From contig JAKOTZ010000030.1 of the NCBI GenBank assembly GCA_029776995.1, forward strand, positions 4,355-68,354: a DNA stretch of 64,000 bases, read 5' to 3'. This document shows positions 8,311 to 35,395 of this stretch, piece by piece (position 1 is the first letter of the stretch; the number at the start of each line of letters is the position of its first letter). The stretch comes from Candidatus Hydrogenedentota bacterium (lineage in GTDB: Bacteria > Hydrogenedentota > Hydrogenedentia > Hydrogenedentales > CAITNO01). The notes beneath the pieces are model-generated. The model was given only the letters and a program-made list of their open reading frames with translations. It was not told the origin of the DNA and did not search any database. The position numbers and the translations under genes are program-made.

Positions 8311-8663
8311 TGGTGGAGGCGGCGGGAATCGAACCCGCGTCCGGAAGTGCTTCCACGAGCGTATCTACGTGCGTAGCCTTTCTTTTAGGTCATCGCCACC
8401 GGCGCGCGCGTCAGGCGCGCTCACGCCGGCCGCCAGGCGGCTGAGCGTCCTTCCCGGGCAGCCGCCGTCATCCCGGGTCGGAGCCCGCTGTCGCCGTCCC
8501 GTTCCGCTAGCGGGCGGTCACGGAAGGGACGGGCGGCCGTTATTAGGCCGCCAGCGCCAAGTTGTCGTTGGCAGTTATTGATTTTCCCGCTTTTTACGAG
8601 GCCAGCGGGTCCTCGGCACGCAACACTCGCTTCTTCCACCCCCGTCGAAACCGGGACGCCCCC
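8311..8663 (-). ncRNA. ssrA: tmRNA (SsrA), proteolysis tag (A)ANDNLALAA
   Basis: 5' GGGGGCGUCCCGGUUUCGACGGG; 3' GGACGCGGGUUCGAUUCCCGCCGCCUCCACCA with a G3.U70 pair; tag frame GCC AAC GAC AAC TTG GCG CTG GCG GCC TAA TAA at 8572-8540. Confidence 0.97.
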
Positions 8664-27889: not shown

Positions 27890-30826
27890 TCAGGGTATCG
27901 CTTTGCCGTTGAATACCACGCGCAGCCCATCATGCGTCGGGTTGGGCGCGTAGCGAAGCGACACCCCTTCCGGCGCGGACGCGGTGATGTGAAGGGTATC
28001 GTTATCGAGCCGCCAGTCCACGGAAACCACGCCTCCCGCCAGCGCGGAAGCGCCTTTGGCCCAGGTCAGGCCGGTTATCCAGGGACTGACGCGCACCGTC
28101 GTACCCCCCGGATTTTCCGGGACAATGCCCAGCACGATCCGGTTCAGGAAGTGAATGGGCGCGGAAGACCACGCGTGGGTGTGACTTCTGGTGGGGAAGC
28201 CTCCGCTGCCGGTTGTTCCGCTCGGGAAGCTTTCCCACACCGTGGTGGCCCCGGAATCGACCATGGGCCCGTAATATTCGCGGATGGCGTTCAGGATAGC
28301 GTCAATTTTGCCGCATTTTTCCAGGGCTTCGAACTGATACATGGCGGCAAAGGGCGATCCCAGGCGGGTCACGTCTTCGCCAGGATTCAGGATAATGTCC
28401 AGCAGCCGTTCCCGGCGCTCCTCCGGCGCAGCGTCGTACAGGAGAGCAAGGAACGCCGTGTGCACGCAAGTCTTGGGACTCAGGGTTCCATCGCCCCGCA
28501 CCGCGTCGGGATAGGCGCCCCTTTCGGCATCCCAAAGCCCCTCCACGGCATTTCGCAGCTGTTCCCGGTATTGGCGCAGCCACGGCAGATGTTCCGTATC
28601 TCCGATGGCTTCCCCAACCGTAATGGCCGCGTCCGCAGCGCCGATGGCAAAAAGGCTGTTGTGGGTAACCGACGCGTGCCCGTCGTCGATGCCGGTCCAG
28701 TCAAACATGTTCCAGAAGGGCGCGCTGAAAAGCCCCCGGCTGTCCGTAAAATTGGCCGCGCCCCGCAGATTCTTCACCATCCAGGGATAGGCCCAGCGGA
28801 CGAAGTCCAGATCTCCCGTGTAGTCATAATAATCCCGCACCATGACGCTCCACAGGAAACTCCACGCGGGCAGCAGGGTTTCCCAGGTGGAAGGGACCTG
28901 GCACAGCACGATGGGATGTTTTTCCAGGGACCACGCGGCCAGCCGGATACAGCGCCGCGCGATGTCCGCCGCGCCAAAAGCGGTATAGGCAAACACCGCC
29001 TCGTTGCGCGCGTCGCCCACCCACAGCGTCTGTTCATACAGGGGGCAGTCGGTGAAGGTGTCTTCCATGCAGAGTTTCAGGGTACGGGCCGAAATCTCCC
29101 AGGTTTTGGTAAAAAGCGGGTCGCTGCAGGCGAAAGACCCCAGGGGCTGAACCGGATAGGTGGATTCAATCAGCCGGATTCCGCGCAGGATGGCCGGCCG
29201 GGTCTGGTTCCGCAGGGTTACAAACAGGTACCGCTGGGACCGGCGGGTGAGGCTGGTAAACGTCTGCCGGCCCTCCCGGCAGACATAACGCATCGCGTTC
29301 CGGTAGGATCCCGTGTGCTGTACCCTGCCGTCCGGGGCGATGTATTCCACTCCGGCCAGGTCAACGACCAGCCCGCTTTCCGCTTCCAGGTCCAGGCTGT
29401 AATATCCGACATTCTGCTCCCCGAGGTCGAATACCAGTTCCACGTCGCCATCAGACTGGGGCGGGATTTTCAGCGGCGCGTCTCCCGACAGGAACGCGTT
29501 GGTATCGCCCAGGGTGTCCGTGATCTGCCGAACGGGCTCCCGGGAAGTGAACAGCCAGTGTACCGCCTCGGTCCACTCCTCCGGGCCAATCAGCCGGCTG
29601 CCTTCGGGAAGCGGCTTTTCCCGGAAAGATTCCGGCCGGCTCCACGTTTCAATGGCCTGATCCAACCCTTTTTTCAGGCGGTTTTCCACTGCCGCGCGTT
29701 CCGCGTCGGACAGCAGGGCCCATTTCCAGTCGGATTCCAGGTATTTTCCGTCCGGCGCGGGGATGTAAATCCAGGGTTTTTCCGCACTGCCGTCCACGGG
29801 GGATACCAGGCGGAACGGCTGATCACACCGAACACGCACCTCGGTGTCGTAATGCCAGTGGCTGAACCAGCGGGAAAGGGCGACATTGAGCAGATGGCGC
29901 CCTGCCTCCAGCGGCATGCCTCGGGAGGGAACCCGTTTGCCGTCCACCAGGGCGGTCTGCGCGCCCGCGTCCACCTGAAGCGTGCCGGGCTGTTCCAGCT
30001 CCACGGCAACGGCATAGATGCCCGTGACCGCGGAATGGTTGTTGGTGGGCACCACCGCGCTGTACAGCCACGGCGCGGTGGGGAATATAAAGGTATGCCA
30101 GTCGCTGCGGCGGACGACGGAGGCCGCGCTCAGGGATTTAAAATGGCGCGGAATCCGGGTCAGCATGGGCACGTCGCGAAGCCAGAGGTTCTTCCAGGGA
30201 CTCTGGCCGGCCGGATATTTCTCGGCAGCCGGCTGAAACTCGCCGGATCCTTCTTTTCGGGCATCGTAGATCTCAAACAGGCCCATCTGAACGGATTGTT
30301 TGGGTACCCAGCGCAGCCATTCCGCGGCTTCCCGCGCCTCCCAGGAAGCATCGGTTACGATCCGGATCGGCGGGCGGGCGGAATCTCTGGGCGCAGCCTC
30401 CAGCGTGGCGAGCAGTCCCGGCTCCTGGGGCAACTGGTGGAAGGTGCCGATGCCGAAAAATTTCGCGATGACAATCAGTTCGTTTTCCCCGGCGCGCGCC
30501 TGGCCGGTTACGTCTATCCGGTCGTACTGGTAGTGGTCGGGCCAGCTTCGGGCGGGGCCGTCTCCCACCCATTCGCCGTTGAGCAGCGCGCGGTACGCCG
30601 TATCCGCCGTAATCCGAAGGGTTACCCGCGCCGATTCCGGCAGGGAAAATACCTTCCGGAAAATGACCGTGTCGTTATAGGGAAAAAATCCCTCCGGCAG
30701 CGCCCGCCAGATCCATTTGGCGCCCTCCCAGCTGAAGTCCCGGTCCGCCTGCAGATCATCCGCGGAAGTCAGGGTTCCCAGGCAAAGTACAGTAAGTCCC
30801 GTTAACAGGTGATGGGGCAGATACAT
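27890..30826 (-). CDS. Exported alpha-L-rhamnosidase-like glycoside hydrolase (GH78)
   Basis: Signal peptide; ITADTAYRALLNGEWVGDGP, DCPLYEQTLWVGD, GATTVWESF, SHTHAWSS; SD AAGGAAG upstream of the ATG at 30826. Confidence 0.85.
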   Translation of the reverse strand: MYLPHHLLTGLTVLCLGTLTSADDLQADRDFSWEGAKWIWRALPEGFFPYNDTVIFRKVFSLPESARVTLRITADTAYRALLNGEWVGDGPARSWPDHYQYDRIDVTGQARAGENELIVIAKFFGIGTFHQLPQEPGLLATLEAAPRDSARPPIRIVTDASWEAREAAEWLRWVPKQSVQMGLFEIYDARKEGSGEFQPAAEKYPAGQSPWKNLWLRDVPMLTRIPRHFKSLSAASVVRRSDWHTFIFPTAPWLYSAVVPTNNHSAVTGIYAVAVELEQPGTLQVDAGAQTALVDGKRVPSRGMPLEAGRHLLNVALSRWFSHWHYDTEVRVRCDQPFRLVSPVDGSAEKPWIYIPAPDGKYLESDWKWALLSDAERAAVENRLKKGLDQAIETWSRPESFREKPLPEGSRLIGPEEWTEAVHWLFTSREPVRQITDTLGDTNAFLSGDAPLKIPPQSDGDVELVFDLGEQNVGYYSLDLEAESGLVVDLAGVEYIAPDGRVQHTGSYRNAMRYVCREGRQTFTSLTRRSQRYLFVTLRNQTRPAILRGIRLIESTYPVQPLGSFACSDPLFTKTWEISARTLKLCMEDTFTDCPLYEQTLWVGDARNEAVFAYTAFGAADIARRCIRLAAWSLEKHPIVLCQVPSTWETLLPAWSFLWSVMVRDYYDYTGDLDFVRWAYPWMVKNLRGAANFTDSRGLFSAPFWNMFDWTGIDDGHASVTHNSLFAIGAADAAITVGEAIGDTEHLPWLRQYREQLRNAVEGLWDAERGAYPDAVRGDGTLSPKTCVHTAFLALLYDAAPEERRERLLDIILNPGEDVTRLGSPFAAMYQFEALEKCGKIDAILNAIREYYGPMVDSGATTVWESFPSGTTGSGGFPTRSHTHAWSSAPIHFLNRIVLGIVPENPGGTTVRVSPWITGLTWAKGASALAGGVVSVDWRLDNDTLHITASAPEGVSLRYAPNPTHDGLRVVFNGKAIP

Positions 30827-30989
30827 GACGACTTCCTTCCATAACGGTTGAATGGATACTAGCCTGCATTGTGGAGCATCCATAGCGCCCGGCGCAACCC
30901 GTCACCGGGTTCACGCGACTCGCAGCCGGCCGGTATCCTTTGCCGTTTCACTCCCTGCCATGCCATGTCGCACCAGCTCCGCCTCGCAT

Positions 30990-31019
30990 TTGCGGCATAA
31001 GGGCGGAGCGGATTATAAT
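30990..31019 (+). promoter_or_regulatory. Sigma70-like promoter for tRNA-His/hisS
   Basis: TTGCGG-N18-TATAAT, 16 nt upstream of the tRNA. Confidence 0.65.
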
Positions 31020-31035
31020 AAGCCCGCTTTTGGGT

Positions 31036-31112
31036 GCCGGGATAGCTCAGTTGGTCAGAGCGCTGGATTGTGGATCCAGAGGTCCTGGGTTCGACCCCCA
31101 GTCCCGGTACCA
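31036..31112 (+). tRNA. trnH: tRNA-His (GUG); no encoded G-1; G1.U72 pair and A73; CCA encoded
   Basis: Cloverleaf GCCGGGA/TCCCGGT, D-stem GCTC/GAGC, anticodon stem CTGGA/TCCAG with GTG at 31070-31072, T-arm CTGGG-TTCGACC-CCCAG, then A CCA. Confidence 0.96.
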
Positions 31113-31186
31113 TTTTCTATGGGGGCGCGCCGGAGCCGCCCGCGGTGGAGGGGGCGTTGCGCGGCGGCCGGTGGAAAGGGTGCTTC

Positions 31187-32623
31187 GTGCCGGGAATCGT
31201 TCCGCAAACACTGAAGGGATTTCAGGATCTCCTGCCGGATGCCATGACGGTCCGGGAGGCGGTGGTGTCCATCATCCGGGACACGTACGCGCGGTTCGGC
31301 TTTCAGCCGCTGGAAACCCCGATACTGGAACGGCTGGACACGCTCACCGGCACCACAGAGGGAGAAACGGGAAAACAGATTTTTACCCTGGAAACGCCCG
31401 AATCTGAAGCCGCGGCTTTGCGCTTCGACCTGACCGTACCCTTCGCGCGGGTGGTCAGCCAGTACCGGGACCGGATCCGGCTGCCGTTTCGGCGGTTCCA
31501 CATCGGTCCCGTGTTCCGCGCGGATAAACCGGGGCCGGGGCGGTTCCGTCAGTTTACCCAGTGTGACATCGACATCGCCGGCGCGCGGGGCGTTGACGCG
31601 GATGCCGAGATCATCGCGGCGCTTTGCGAAGCTTTTCGGGCGCTGGGCCTGGGCGGACAGCCGCCGAAGTATCAGGTTCGGGTCAGCAGCCGAAAGCTGG
31701 TGGACGCGCTGCTGCAGGGATACGGGGTCACGGAGCCGGCAACGCTGAAGCATACCCTCCGGGTGATGGACAAACTGCAAAAAGTGGGGCTGGAGAATGT
31801 GCGGCTGGAGCTGGGACCGGGACGGATAGACGAATCGGGTGATCCGATCCCGGGCGTAGGACTGGAAGCCGGCCTGATTGACCGCATCGCGGATTTTGTG
31901 GGCATCAGCGCGCCGGACCGAAAAACAATGCTGGCCTTACTTACGGAACGGCTGCCGGATACCGAATCCGCCCGGGACGCCCTGGCGGAAATGGCGGAAC
32001 TGGACCGGTGCCTTGAAGCCCTGGGACTGAGCGATGAAGAAGTCTGTTACGACCCCAGCCTGACCCGCGGGCTGGATTATTACACGGGACCGGTGCTGGA
32101 AGTGGCGCTTCCCGGCGCGCCGGAATTCGGTTCGGTAGGGGGAGGCGGGCGGTACGACGGACTTTGCGACCGTTTCCTGGAAGAACCGATCCCCGCGACA
32201 GGGGCTTCCATTGGTTTGGACCGTTTAGTGGCGGCGCTCGTTCACCTGGGACTGGCTCCCGCGCCGGACCGGCCGATCCACGCCTGCGTGGTCACGGTTG
32301 GTAACGTGCCGCGGGAGGAGGTGTTGCGCCTGGCGGCGGAATTGCGCGCCGGCGGATTAAATATTATTACGTTCCCGGGCGCGAAAAAAGGGCTGGGGGC
32401 CCAGTTGTCGCTGGCGGACCATTACGGCATACCCGCGGCCGTCGTACTGGGCGAGGACGAACTGGCCCGGGGCGTGGTTGCCGTCAAGGACCTGGCCATG
32501 GGAAAGGCGATCCGCGAAAACATAGCGGACCATGACGCCTACCGGCGGGCAGGGCGGGAAGCCCAGGTTACCGTTCCCCGGAATGAAGCCGCGGAACGGA
32601 TCCGCCGGATCACCGGCGCGTAG
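31187..32623 (+). CDS. hisS: Histidine--tRNA ligase, alphaproteobacterial-type variant
   Basis: KGFQD, ALRFDLTVP, FRADKPGPGRFRQFTQCD, LTRGLDYYTG, GGGGRYD, GASIGLDR; GTG start with SD GGAAAGGG. Confidence 0.95.
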   Translation: MPGIVPQTLKGFQDLLPDAMTVREAVVSIIRDTYARFGFQPLETPILERLDTLTGTTEGETGKQIFTLETPESEAAALRFDLTVPFARVVSQYRDRIRLPFRRFHIGPVFRADKPGPGRFRQFTQCDIDIAGARGVDADAEIIAALCEAFRALGLGGQPPKYQVRVSSRKLVDALLQGYGVTEPATLKHTLRVMDKLQKVGLENVRLELGPGRIDESGDPIPGVGLEAGLIDRIADFVGISAPDRKTMLALLTERLPDTESARDALAEMAELDRCLEALGLSDEEVCYDPSLTRGLDYYTGPVLEVALPGAPEFGSVGGGGRYDGLCDRFLEEPIPATGASIGLDRLVAALVHLGLAPAPDRPIHACVVTVGNVPREEVLRLAAELRAGGLNIITFPGAKKGLGAQLSLADHYGIPAAVVLGEDELARGVVAVKDLAMGKAIRENIADHDAYRRAGREAQVTVPRNEAAERIRRITGA

Positions 32624-32645: not shown

Positions 32646-33977
32646 TTATTCATCCGGGGGCTGACGGGCTTCAATCAGTTTCCGCGCCAGGGCCAGGCCC
32701 GCTTCGCGGGTGGAAAAGACTCCTTCGATCTGCCGTTCGTGCAGCATCTGCAGCAATTCCCGATAAGCCGGACCGGGCGGCAGGCCAAGCGCTTTCAGGT
32801 CGTCCCCGGTAATCAGCGGCGGCGGCAGCGGCTGGGCGGGCGGCTCGTGCGACAGGTATTGCCGTATCCACTCGATGACACTCGTATCGCCGTGGCTCGC
32901 AAGGCTGTCCAGCCGGCCCAGCTCCACCAGCAGCGGAAAATCCGGTTCGCGGGAAAACCGTTTGCGTTTCCCTTCGCGCATATCCGGAAACGCGGCCAGC
33001 CGCATGTGGTTGCCCACCAGCCAGGCGATCCGCTCGATCCGGCGGTTCGGGAATCTCAGCCGCCGGCCAATGCCGTGTACCATCTGTTCACCGACTTTTT
33101 CGTGGTAGTGGAACCGGATCCGGTCCGCGTAAGTGATTGTGCGCGGCTTGCCGCAATCGTGGAGCAGCGCCGCCCAGGCCAGCTCCACGGGGGCATGCGG
33201 CGGCAGCAGGTCCAGCATGCGGAGGGTATGTTCCCATACGTCCCCTTCGGGATGAAAGGCTTCCGGCTGGGGCACTCCCTTCAGGTCGGCGATTTCCGGC
33301 AGAATCAGGCTCAGCAGGCCCGACTCGGAAAGCGCTTCCATGGCCCGCCGGGCGCCGCCTTCGGTGAGCATGCGGTCAAGCTCTTCCCGGATCCGTTCAG
33401 CGCTCACCCCCTGCAGCCCTTCTTCCGCGGTGACCTGTTTCAGGGCATCCCAGGTTTCCGGGACAATGCGGAAATTCAGGGCTGAGGCGAATCGAATGGC
33501 CCGCAGCAGCCGCAGCCGATCCTCCAGAAATCGTTCCCGGGGATTGCCCACGCATCGGATAACCTGGTTCCGCAGGTCTTCCAGCCCGCCGGTAAAGTCG
33601 AGCACCTGGTCCGTGGCAGGATCCAGGAATAAGGCATTGATGGTAAAGTCCCGGCGCATGGCGTCTTCGCGCGGGGCGGCATAGGCCACGCTGTCCGGGT
33701 GGCGGCCGTCCTGGTACGCGCCGTCCCGGCGGAAGGTAACCACATCGATTTCTTCCCCGTCCTGCAGCACTTTAACCACCCCAAAGGAAAGCCCGACCGG
33801 CACAATGCGGGGAAACAGGGCGCGGACCTCTTCAGGCGTGGCGTTGGTGGCCACGTCATAGTCCTTGGGCGACCGGCCCAGCAGCCTGTCGCGGACGCAC
33901 CCTCCCGCGAACAGGGCCATAAAGCCATGCCGCCGAAGCGTGTCACATACTGTCAGCGCTGAGGACAGGGTGCTCAT
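32646..33977 (-). CDS. cca: CCA tRNA nucleotidyltransferase / poly(A) polymerase family with HD domain
   Basis: GGCVRDRLLG, DYDVAT, RRDFTINAL, EDRLRLLRAIRF, HPEGDVWEHT, LLHDCGKP. Confidence 0.9.
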   Translation of the reverse strand: MSTLSSALTVCDTLRRHGFMALFAGGCVRDRLLGRSPKDYDVATNATPEEVRALFPRIVPVGLSFGVVKVLQDGEEIDVVTFRRDGAYQDGRHPDSVAYAAPREDAMRRDFTINALFLDPATDQVLDFTGGLEDLRNQVIRCVGNPRERFLEDRLRLLRAIRFASALNFRIVPETWDALKQVTAEEGLQGVSAERIREELDRMLTEGGARRAMEALSESGLLSLILPEIADLKGVPQPEAFHPEGDVWEHTLRMLDLLPPHAPVELAWAALLHDCGKPRTITYADRIRFHYHEKVGEQMVHGIGRRLRFPNRRIERIAWLVGNHMRLAAFPDMREGKRKRFSREPDFPLLVELGRLDSLASHGDTSVIEWIRQYLSHEPPAQPLPPPLITGDDLKALGLPPGPAYRELLQMLHERQIEGVFSTREAGLALARKLIEARQPPDE

Positions 33978-35395
33978 GCCGGGGAAGATTCCGATGATGG
34001 CCGGGGTTCAGGATCCTGGTCCTGGGCGGACGGCAGCAGCCGCGGCATAAAACGGTCCGCGACCACCCCGGGCAGCAGGCTGACCGCGGCCAGCAGCATG
34101 CCGACCGGAAGGGCGTGGGCGCACCAGTGGAATACCAGCAGCCCCGCAGCCCACCCGACCCGGGACGCGGGCTTCCGGAACAGCGCCGTGAGCAGCGACA
34201 TCAGCGCGCTGGCCGCAATCAGCGCGTTCAGCGCGGTTGGCCACGGGCTTACCAGCGTGACCATACGGGTAATCACAAAGCCCGCCGCCGCCCACGGGAA
34301 AAAATCACTCCATATGGAGAGACTGCGCCGCCAGATCAGCAGATACATCCCTCCGACCGAGAGGGTAACGGCAGCCAGGAACACGAGCGTCAAACTTGTG
34401 CCGTCGGGAACCCATGGATTGAGCGGGGAGTAATAGAAGTCAAGGAGTAGAATGTCCCTGCCGCTGAGATCCAGCAGGACGGCGCCAATCAGCGGTCCCC
34501 ACCACATGATCCGGCCGATCCAGCGCAGTACGGGGGCCCTGGCGACCATACCCGCAACGGTATACGCCCCGCCGACGATCAGGGTGGCCAGCAGCAGGCG
34601 TCCGATATTGTCCAGTCGGCTGTCGTTCAGGTCAGGCGCCCACAGCCATACCGGCGCCAGCATGGGTATCAGCCCGCGCCAGAAGATAAAATCCCGAAAC
34701 GGGTACTCCCTTTCCCGACTGAGCGCGTATTCCGCCGCGATGAACAGCAGCAGCCCGCCCGCCAGCACCCACGGTCCGCCGGATCCGGATACATAGGCCG
34801 CGGGCAGCGCGCCGGAAAGGGCCAGCAGCCGGATCAGCAGTCCTCCCAGCGCGGGGACCAGCGCGACCAGCGCCGCCTCGGGAAGCCCCAGGATCATCCG
34901 CCAGCCGGTCATGTACAGGCCGACAGCAATCAGGTATTTCCCGGTATCCGCCTCGGAAATTCTCAGGCCGGTTTCCACCAGTAGGGGCAGCGCGGCCAGG
35001 CCGGCAAGCATCATCGCGGCAGGATGCCCGCCGGAATCGGGCAGTCTCAAAACAACACGGCCCAGCACAAGGGCCCACGCCGCCAGCAACAGCGGCACGG
35101 TCCAGCCCGGGCCGGTTGGCTGCTGCCAGGCGGGCAGCAGCAGGCACCAGAAAGACAGGCTCAGCAATCCGCGGCGAAGCAGCCGCAGATACCAGCGTTT
35201 CGCGGGAATCAGTCCGCCCGGCAGGCAAGCGCCGGCAACCGCGCTGCCCCAAAAGCCCGGTAACAGGCTGGCCGCAAATGCCGCTGCCAGAAACAGAAGG
35301 ACTGTGAGCGCGCGCTCCGGCAGGCTGCCCGACCCTGAACCCTGATGTGTTTCAGTACTTCCGTCCGCCAATCTCTTATCCTTAAGTGACGTCAC
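33974..35395 (-). CDS. Hypothetical polytopic membrane protein
   Basis: More than 12 hydrophobic segments; sits between engB and cca, with an ATGA overlap to cca. Confidence 0.7.
   Translation of the reverse strand: MTSLKDKRLADGSTETHQGSGSGSLPERALTVLLFLAAAFAASLLPGFWGSAVAGACLPGGLIPAKRWYLRLLRRGLLSLSFWCLLLPAWQQPTGPGWTVPLLLAAWALVLGRVVLRLPDSGGHPAAMMLAGLAALPLLVETGLRISEADTGKYLIAVGLYMTGWRMILGLPEAALVALVPALGGLLIRLLALSGALPAAYVSGSGGPWVLAGGLLLFIAAEYALSREREYPFRDFIFWRGLIPMLAPVWLWAPDLNDSRLDNIGRLLLATLIVGGAYTVAGMVARAPVLRWIGRIMWWGPLIGAVLLDLSGRDILLLDFYYSPLNPWVPDGTSLTLVFLAAVTLSVGGMYLLIWRRSLSIWSDFFPWAAAGFVITRMVTLVSPWPTALNALIAASALMSLLTALFRKPASRVGWAAGLLVFHWCAHALPVGMLLAAVSLLPGVVADRFMPRLLPSAQDQDPEPRPSSESSPA

Follow-up and report, generated by a model that had tools for sequence, protein, structure and literature searches.

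The G at position −1 of tRNA-His (G-1) is among the most conserved of tRNA identity marks. A 64,000-nt stretch of DNA from Candidatus Hydrogenedentota bacterium (GenBank assembly GCA_029776995.1, contig JAKOTZ010000030.1, positions 4,355 to 68,354; this whole stretch is called the window below) carries a tRNA-His gene in which this G is not encoded, followed on the same strand by hisS, the gene for histidyl-tRNA synthetase (HisRS). The locus raises the question of how such a tRNA is charged, and whether the adjoining enzyme is made for it. Our answer, developed below, is that tRNA and enzyme very probably belong together as a G-1-independent pair for charging histidine. The two genes are as follows (aa, amino acids):

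31036..31112, + strand: tRNA-His(GTG) with a G1:U72 wobble, C2:G71, C3:G70, A73, G37 and an encoded CCA (ARAGORN, Rfam)
31187..32623, + strand: hisS, a 478-aa HisRS of the eukaryote/archaeal-like branch, G-1-less subtype (profile matches and AlphaFold2 fold)

Four derived marks in the synthetase

The alignment on which we base the classification of the enzyme comprises 83 HisRS sequences: that of the window, 73 loci from a scan of species-representative genomes (at least 596 relatives, of which the best 80 loci were kept), four from alphaproteobacteria (Sinorhizobium, Methylobacterium, Paracoccus, and Cereibacter, taken from mislabelled chromosomes or chromids in a plasmid collection), and five others (Parabacteroides, Vescimonas, Nostoc, human, and E. 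coli K-12). Four marks divide this set into 68 signature-bearing and 15 signature-less sequences. All four are common to the HisRS of the window and of the four alphaproteobacteria, and all four are wanting in the signature-less enzymes (Thermomicrobia, Bacteroides, Nostoc, human, E. coli), which bears out the resemblance to G-1-less alphaproteobacterial HisRS that an earlier note, made from the sequence alone, had proposed. Because the features of the window HisRS are conserved among 64 aligned relatives and in the 68 signature-bearing sequences, they are not due to chance. In the window, the marks are located as follows:

31394..31408, + strand: G-1 pocket site, T70-P71-E72-S73-E74, equivalent to Gly72'-Gly73' of T. 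thermophilus (alignment)
31517..31555, + strand: motif-2 loop, R111-F123, RADKPGPGRFRQF (alignment)
31823..31858, + strand: insert 1, residues ~213-224, RIDESGDPIPGV, 12 aa in the insertion domain (alignment)
32507..32563, + strand: insert 2, residues 441-459, AIRENIADHDAYRRAGREA, 19 aa within the anticodon-binding domain (alignment)

The first two marks lie where HisRS meets the acceptor end of the tRNA. In T. thermophilus HisRS, a Gly72'-Gly73' dipeptide forms the pocket for G-1, while in the Caulobacter enzyme a pair of Asp residues stands in place of Gly-Gly and blocks the site (PMC4357726, Tian 2015). The signature-less sequences read D[RHQ]GG here, with Gly in 12 of 15 at the first position and 10 of 15 at the second. 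The signature-bearing sequences follow the pattern [ST]-P-E-x-E, and the first position is acidic in every one of the 68 (Glu in 64, Asp in 4). The motif-2 Gln, in turn, contacts the G-1:C73 pair, and Gly in its place marks the alphaproteobacterial clade without G-1 (PMC3937112, PMC4338351). In the window, G116 takes the position of E. coli Gln118 and P117 that of Lys119. Across the alignment, the signature-bearing loop reads KPG-PGRF(R)QF as against RPQ(K/R)GR in Gln-bearing HisRS; some relatives have Asp or Asn instead of Gly at the position of the C73-reading Gln. At 13 residues, the window loop has the length of its E. coli counterpart and is shorter than the eukaryotic NPAMTRGR loop.

The other two marks are insertions. 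Insert 1 is present in the window clade, in Acidobacteriota, Bacteroidota, and Ignavibacteriota loci, and in the four alphaproteobacterial HisRS (GRKDESGDFTKGAG in S. meliloti), and is missing from the aligned Thermomicrobia, Bacteroides, Vescimonas, Nostoc, and human enzymes. Insert 2 shows the same pattern of presence and absence; it measures 19-24 residues among signature-bearing HisRS and can be aligned with the alphaproteobacterial insert, which has been proposed to read the anticodon (PMC3064791, PMC3245924). The inserts are homologous by sequence and not merely by position, as a comparison of GPGRIDESGDPIPGVGL in the window with GEGRKDESGDFTKGAGL in S. meliloti illustrates. In the AlphaFold2 model, insert 1 is predicted to form a beta-hairpin (strands 212-214 and 220-222) and insert 2 two short helices (436-443 and 449-457). 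In a separate check, insert 1 was looked for in the 150 highest-ranking library representatives (one for each 50%-identity cluster). It occurs in about 40 of them, a count that points to dozens of divergent clusters of enzymes with the sequence type of the window, and among those with a parsed loop it occurs in none of the 58 Gln-loop enzymes.

The peptides quoted in the earlier note, FRADKPGPGRFRQF (residues 110-123), DKLQKVGLENVRLELGPGRIDESGD (residues 195-219), and KDLAMGKAIRENIADHDAYRRAGREAQ (residues 434-460), are all found in the 478-aa translation of 31187-32623, and the sequence that it gave for comparison, RPQKGRYRQF, is indeed the motif-2 loop of E. coli K-12 hisS. Its description of the two added segments needs correction. 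Within the second peptide, presented as an insert, residues ~213-224 are specific to the enzyme type, but the first 15 quoted residues are common to eukaryote-like HisRS: the DKLQKVG..NVR.EL stretch occurs in all eukaryote/archaeal-like HisRS and is therefore not specific to enzymes of the window type. The third peptide, presented as a C-terminal extension, is present but represents an internal 19-aa insert (441-459), after which a conserved final strand and helix follow.

The adjoining tRNA-His and its co-variation with the enzyme

The tRNA features expected of such an enzyme, which the earlier note had taken to match it, are found in the adjoining gene: a tRNA-His without templated G-1 and with G1:U72 and A73. 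The gene lies 74 nt upstream of hisS, and the Rfam tRNA model scores 71.4 bits on 31036-31112. G1 is at 31036, the T of U72 at 31108, and the discriminator A73 at 31109. The D-loop has 9 nt (AGTTGGTCA), with C at position 20a. The base preceding G1 is

31035..31035, + strand: T, not G, at tRNA-His position −1 (sequence)

All 77 nt of the tRNA gene are identical in two relatives (L093 and L094) whose HisRS is 87% identical to that of the window.

Linkage of the two genes recurs beyond this group. A tRNA-His gene is linked to hisS in 21 of the 80 best scan loci, in addition to the window, L093, and L094, and in 19 of these 21 it lies upstream on the hisS strand, mostly within ~180 nt. Two Bacteroidota loci have a tRNA-His gene divergent from hisS (L051 5695-5769 and L052 5686-5760, both on the − strand), which is linkage without co-transcription.

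Together with those of S. meliloti and Methylobacterium, the hisS-linked genes give 25 tRNA-His genes for comparison, all paired with a signature-bearing HisRS. G1:U72, C2:G71, A73, and G37 are present in 25 of 25, so that enzyme and tRNA marks are seen to occur together in about 25 genomes. As a control, Parabacteroides distasonis, whose HisRS belongs to the same broad branch and is signature-less, has a tRNA-His with a templated G-1, G1:C72, and C73. The −1 base, in contrast to the invariant positions, varies: the 24 related tRNA-His genes with readable flanks have T in 15, G in 5, C in 3, and A in 1, and T is found in S. meliloti and M. bullatum. The predominance of T is consistent with RNase P cutting at +1 in the ordinary way. 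In all three Vicinamibacteria, a G at −1 stands opposite A73, though their enzymes bear the closed-pocket marks; if retained, the G in the five tRNAs that have it would mean a eukaryote-like G-1:A73 geometry. We also considered retention of U-1 through a U-1:A73 pair and rejected it, given that the −1 base varies and that the S. meliloti tRNA-His, with T at −1, is reported to lack an additional 5' nucleotide (Wang 2007, as cited in PMC3064791).

Four metatranscriptome runs yielded one hisS fragment and one tRNA-His contig of a different organism. The contig, from run X26, covers window positions 31036-31113 and represents a transcribed tRNA-His 90-95% identical to that of the window. Its flanks are unrelated and its −1 base is C; its source is a different organism in a digester community.

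Relatives of the enzyme and their distribution

When plasmids and chromids were searched by tblastn, the best named relatives of the window HisRS were Shinella, Paracoccus, Sinorhizobium, Methylobacterium, Cereibacter, and Ruegeria. These alphaproteobacterial matches, at 37-39% identity over 97-99% of the window protein, outrank Vescimonas, Bacteroides, and haloarchaea. In a neighbour-joining tree, the 68 signature-bearing HisRS form one clade with no signature-less member inside it. The window HisRS groups with the G-1-less type and not with canonical enzymes, so that the clustering check by which the earlier note proposed to refute its own claim goes in its favor. Bootstrap support is 100% for the alphaproteobacteria and 98% for the window subclade. 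The placement of the alphaproteobacterial branch within the signature-bearing clade has 37% support, and hence we make no firm claim about the direction of transfer. It is mainly the shared homologous inserts, a stronger argument than the tree, that suggest common descent of the signature-bearing enzymes.

The nearest proteins are named Candidatus Hydrogenedentes or Hydrogenedentota and come from metagenome-assembled genomes, and Hydrogenedentota-labelled genomes among the best 80 scan loci all have the signature-bearing enzyme. The labels of signature-bearing HisRS in the same set further include Sumerlaeota, Omnitrophota, Planctomycetota, Verrucomicrobiota, Acidobacteriota, Bacteroidota, Ignavibacteriota, and Edwardsbacteria. 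Independent NCBI names agree (Ignavibacteria, Bryobacteraceae, Acidobacteria, Abditibacteriaceae, Verrucomicrobiota), and several of the hisS genes are on contigs of 0.77-5.1 Mb, which makes mislabelling during binning unlikely. All of these records are metagenome-assembled genomes, with no cultured isolate among the named matches. The pair with these marks is thus present, often with its genes linked, in Acidobacteriota, Bacteroidota, Ignavibacteriota, Verrucomicrobiota, and Planctomycetota, outside the alphaproteobacterial RRCH clade, to which the literature consulted restricts it. Good coverage of the window locus was seen in DNA metagenomes only; the runs that contain it are from activated sludge and anaerobic digesters. 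In L055 (6001-7466), which lies on a Phycisphaerales contig of 5.0 Mb, hisS is a broken open reading frame (ORF) with 339 aa aligned, perhaps owing to a long-read frameshift.

Identity, fold, and start of the synthetase

The window protein scores 339.8 bits against the NCBIfam equivalog TIGR00442 hisS (cutoff 286.75), and Pfam recognizes the HisRS core and the HGTP anticodon-binding domain (PF03129). Motif 2, motif 3 (GGGRYD), and the histidine boxes are all intact. Among solved structures, those most similar in sequence are the eukaryote/archaeal-like HisRS of Nostoc (3net), Elizabethkingia (6nhi), and human, and a fold search with the AlphaFold2 model (mean pLDDT, the model's confidence score, 86.7) ranks the same three on top; identity to the best match in the PDB is 32%. 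The structure of E. coli HisRS matches far more weakly, as two pieces.

The ORF at 31187-32623 (+ strand) comprises 478 codons and a stop, with GTG as the start codon. This start is backed by a TTG at the same position in L093 and L094; owing to a 2-nt indel relative to these relatives, an upstream GTG is not in frame in the window. The 517-aa ORF that starts earlier, at 31070, was rejected as an artefact: it passes through the tRNA gene, and its first 14 residues are translated tRNA gene. Public calls of 517-520 aa (P0001, P0002, and P0127-P0131; 31070-32623 in the window) likewise begin within the tRNA-His gene. The peptide MDPEVLGSTPSPGT in public hisS calls is a translation of the 3' half of the tRNA, an annotation artefact that recurs in the lineage.

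Expression and neighborhood of the locus

Two further features bear on expression of the pair:

31014..31019, + strand: TATAAT box, candidate −10 element for the tRNA-His/hisS unit, 16 nt upstream of tRNA +1 (by eye)
31113..31186, + strand: tRNA-hisS spacer, 74 nt, with purine-rich GGAAAGGG directly before the start codon (sequence)

The TATAAT box and its surroundings are kept in L093 and L094, where neighboring bases diverge, as is GGAAAGGGTGCT of the spacer. A consensus promoter scan called no sigma-70 promoter here, the −35 region being weak. A scan for terminators gave no terminator-like site in the spacer. With a common strand, a distance of 74 nt, and no terminator in between, the two genes are probably co-transcribed as one expression unit. 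A structured leader or attenuator in the spacer was considered and rejected, its fold being no more stable than that of shuffled sequence (z = 0.47).

The flanks are housekeeping genes in conserved synteny, encoding a CCA-adding enzyme, a GTPase, Lon protease, and V-type ATPase, and no integrase or transposase was called near the tRNA-His/hisS locus. The contig of MBP9003613.1, from the 87%-identical cluster, has the order of the window: tRNA-His, hisS, convergent CCA-adding enzyme, GTPase, Lon. The convergent gene at 32646-33977 (− strand) encodes a protein of the CCA-adding enzyme/poly(A) polymerase family with an HD domain (PF01743, PF12627, PF01966), and the arrangement of tRNA-His, hisS, and this gene is kept in L093 and L094. 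Because the tRNA-His of the window encodes its own CCA, no functional link to the CCA-adding enzyme is implied. Beyond it lies a 473-aa ORF (33974-35395, − strand) with no Pfam match, a multi-pass membrane protein by the look of its sequence, which in both L093 and L094 is likewise conserved downstream of the CCA-adding enzyme. The gene that adjoins the tRNA on its upstream side is on the other strand and encodes a 997-aa alpha-L-rhamnosidase of the GH78 type (27890-30883, − strand). Elsewhere in the window there is a one-piece tmRNA (8311-8663, − strand; Rfam, 192.7 bits) with the tag peptide ANDNLALAA; alphaproteobacterial tmRNA is usually two-piece.

Discussion

Judged by its sequence, the window pair is of the G-1-less Caulobacter type. 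The closest known system is that of Caulobacter crescentus and Sinorhizobium meliloti in the RRCH clade (Ardell & Andersson 2006, Wang 2007, Yuan 2011), which has already been characterized biochemically (PMC3064791). Caulobacter HisRS charges tRNA without G-1, and addition of G-1 lowers its efficiency 5-fold (PMC3064791, Yuan 2011). The U72C change costs 91-fold and anticodon changes 91-1000-fold, making U72 and the anticodon the major identity elements, and the E. coli tRNA-His is a 250-fold worse substrate (PMC3064791). The G-1-less alphaproteobacterial tRNAs share A73, G1:U72, a conserved C3:G70-type pair, and a 9-nt D-loop (PMC3064791). Like that of the window, RRCH tRNA-His lacks a templated G-1 and has G1:U72, A73, G37, and the 9-nt D-loop; like that of the window, RRCH HisRS has Gly for the C73-reading Gln, an acidic residue at the G-1 pocket, and homologous inserts in the insertion domain (12 aa) and the anticodon-binding domain. 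The two systems differ in that the enzymes are only 37-39% identical and the host here is a Hydrogenedentota bacterium, in position 20a of the tRNA (U in RRCH, C in the window), in the pocket sequence (DDD in RRCH, PESE in the window), and in gene order: tRNA-His and hisS are ~84 kb apart in S. meliloti, whereas the tRNA is directly upstream of hisS in the window.

Other HisRS types share less with the pair. The signature-less bacterial enzymes of the eukaryote/archaeal-like branch (Nostoc 3net, Elizabethkingia 6nhi, Parabacteroides, Thermomicrobia) have the fold and the insertion-domain type (DKLxKxG...) of the window HisRS, but unlike it they keep the motif-2 Gln and the Gly-Gly pocket and lack both inserts, and Parabacteroides pairs such an enzyme with a canonical G-1:C73 tRNA-His. 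The E. coli and T. thermophilus systems perform the same reaction with the same class IIa core and anticodon-binding domain. Their tRNA-His has a templated G-1:C73, kept by an unusual RNase P cut, and their HisRS has Gln118, a pocket of Asn-Gly (E. coli) or Gly-Gly (T. thermophilus), an unrelated insertion domain, and weak anticodon dependence. In place of these canonical features, the window has T at −1, A73, Gly116, and Glu72. The HisRS of Trypanosoma brucei and Acanthamoeba castellanii also charge without G-1 and rely on the anticodon, but nothing in them corresponds to the motif-2 Gly, and positions 1 and 72 of their tRNAs form a Watson-Crick pair (Rao & Jackman 2015, PMC4338351); on both counts they represent an independent solution. 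The T. cruzi and T. brucei HisRS structures are more distant matches to the window protein.

The sequence marks, read together with the published Caulobacter biochemistry, suggest how the pair may work. The tRNA-His would be transcribed from its own promoter, at the conserved TATAAT box (31014-31019), with a short leader. RNase P would cut at the ordinary +1, so that the mature tRNA would start at G1 with no extra 5' nucleotide. With its pocket filled (Gly-Gly to Glu-Ser) and the C73-reading Gln changed to Gly, the HisRS would no longer read G-1:C73. By analogy with Caulobacter, it would recognize the G1:U72 wobble and A73 at the acceptor end, and the GUG anticodon would be strongly recognized via the two-helix insert in the anticodon-binding domain. 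The tRNA and hisS would be expressed as one unit.

Several observations weigh against this reading. The signature-bearing clade has a bootstrap value of only 53% in the distance tree. The tRNA features of the RRCH type are not all constant: the D-loop has 9 nt in only 17 of the 25 tRNA-His genes, position 20a in the window itself is C and not U, and the 3:70 pair is variable among the 25. Five relatives (L010, L044, L057, L059, L061) have G at −1. Across the tRNA, the four metatranscriptome runs contain no usable reads that would show the mature 5' end. Finally, 64 kb of the genome is visible, and a second tRNA-His, a second HisRS, or a Thg1-like enzyme is possible elsewhere.

The last point leads to the alternative that survives best, which we nevertheless consider unlikely. 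In a eukaryote-style route, the tRNA would be cut at +1, a Thg1-like 3'-5' polymerase would add G-1 opposite A73, and the HisRS would be an ordinary G-1-dependent enzyme. A73 without a templated G-1 is indeed the eukaryotic arrangement, the enzyme falls on the eukaryote/archaeal-like branch and has human HisRS as one of its best structural matches, Thg1 homologues exist in some bacteria (PMC3245924), and the five relatives with G at −1 would suit a G-1:A73 end. The enzyme itself, however, speaks against this route: human HisRS and others of the eukaryote-like kind keep the Gly-Gly pocket, where the window has Glu-Ser and all 68 signature-bearing sequences have an acidic residue, and the motif-2 loop has the Caulobacter form, not that of the longer eukaryotic NPAMTRGR. 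So does the tRNA, as all have the G1:U72 wobble where eukaryotic tRNA-His has a Watson-Crick 1:72 pair (PMC4338351), and the −1 base is not conserved. S. meliloti, with the same enzyme marks and tRNA layout, is the case for which Wang 2007, as cited in PMC3064791, reports no extra nucleotide.

It is very unlikely that the pair is a second copy, accessory or gained recently, while a bacterial-type HisRS and a canonical G-1:C73 tRNA-His elsewhere do the housekeeping. The linkage of tRNA and synthetase resembles a transferable cassette and recurs in unrelated phyla, and the visible part of the genome is 64 kb. Against this, the locus is flanked by syntenic housekeeping genes with no mobile-element gene called nearby, the Hydrogenedentota-labelled genomes among the best 80 loci all carry the signature-bearing enzyme, and in relatives with 87% identity in HisRS the tRNA matches at 77 of 77 positions. 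That the protein is not a synthetase but HisZ, the regulatory subunit of ATP phosphoribosyltransferase, we dismiss as next to impossible: HisZ models do match it, and some fragments in its cluster carry that name at NCBI, but all HisZ models stay far below their cutoffs (at most 182.7 bits against at least 271), the hisS equivalog passes its own, and the anticodon-binding domain is complete (PF03129), with motif 2, motif 3, and the histidine boxes intact. The fragments, HOJ69851.1, HPO31481.1, and HOJ69817.1 (P0002 cluster), are partial HisRS copies misnamed 'ATP phosphoribosyltransferase regulatory subunit, partial'.

For engineering, the G-1-independent pairs supply candidates for a second histidine channel. 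That the window pair could be orthogonal in E. coli, as the earlier note suggested, is a reasonable idea by analogy with the Caulobacter pair (PMC3064791). Given an anticodon dependence of the Caulobacter type (91-1000-fold losses), an attempt to turn the window tRNA into a suppressor would probably be unsuccessful. The arrangement favored by Yuan et al. is the reverse, in which the G-1-less pair serves His codons and an E. coli-type pair is recoded (PMC3064791), and an anticodon-dependent enzyme suits keeping His codons better than it suits suppression. With regard to layout, the pair can be likened to the pylT-pylS cassette, in which a tRNA gene also stands beside the gene of its dedicated synthetase, so that a self-sufficient pair can pass from one genome to another. 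The pylTS pair adds a new amino acid at a stop codon, whereas the window pair serves ordinary His codons.

The kind of system described here is known; its distribution and the linkage of its genes appear to be new. A 2023 identity review lists the G-1-less trait for Alphaproteobacteria and protists only, and our literature search, whose coverage excluded subscription journals, found no paper tying it to other phyla. Co-varying marks in at least half a dozen other phyla, with the two genes often adjacent, widen the known distribution of the trait. They also provide many divergent natural variants with which to sort out which marks matter, as the −1 base, the D-loop, and pair 3:70 vary and G1:U72, C2:G71, A73, and G37 do not. 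The origin of the alphaproteobacterial G-1-less system is thereby reopened as a question. We tentatively suggest, as a possibility that we hold at somewhat less than even confidence, that the G-1-less pair is not an alphaproteobacterial invention but is widespread, often as a two-gene tRNA-His/hisS cassette (in Hydrogenedentota, Acidobacteriota, Bacteroidota, Ignavibacteriota, Verrucomicrobiota, Planctomycetota, Sumerlaeota, and Abditibacteriota), and that the RRCH clade received it from such a lineage by lateral transfer, whether as a pair or as the enzyme alone, and not from a eukaryote with a change of the tRNA in place. If true, this would weaken arguments that treat the trait as a marker unique to the RRCH clade, such as those on the placement of SAR11.

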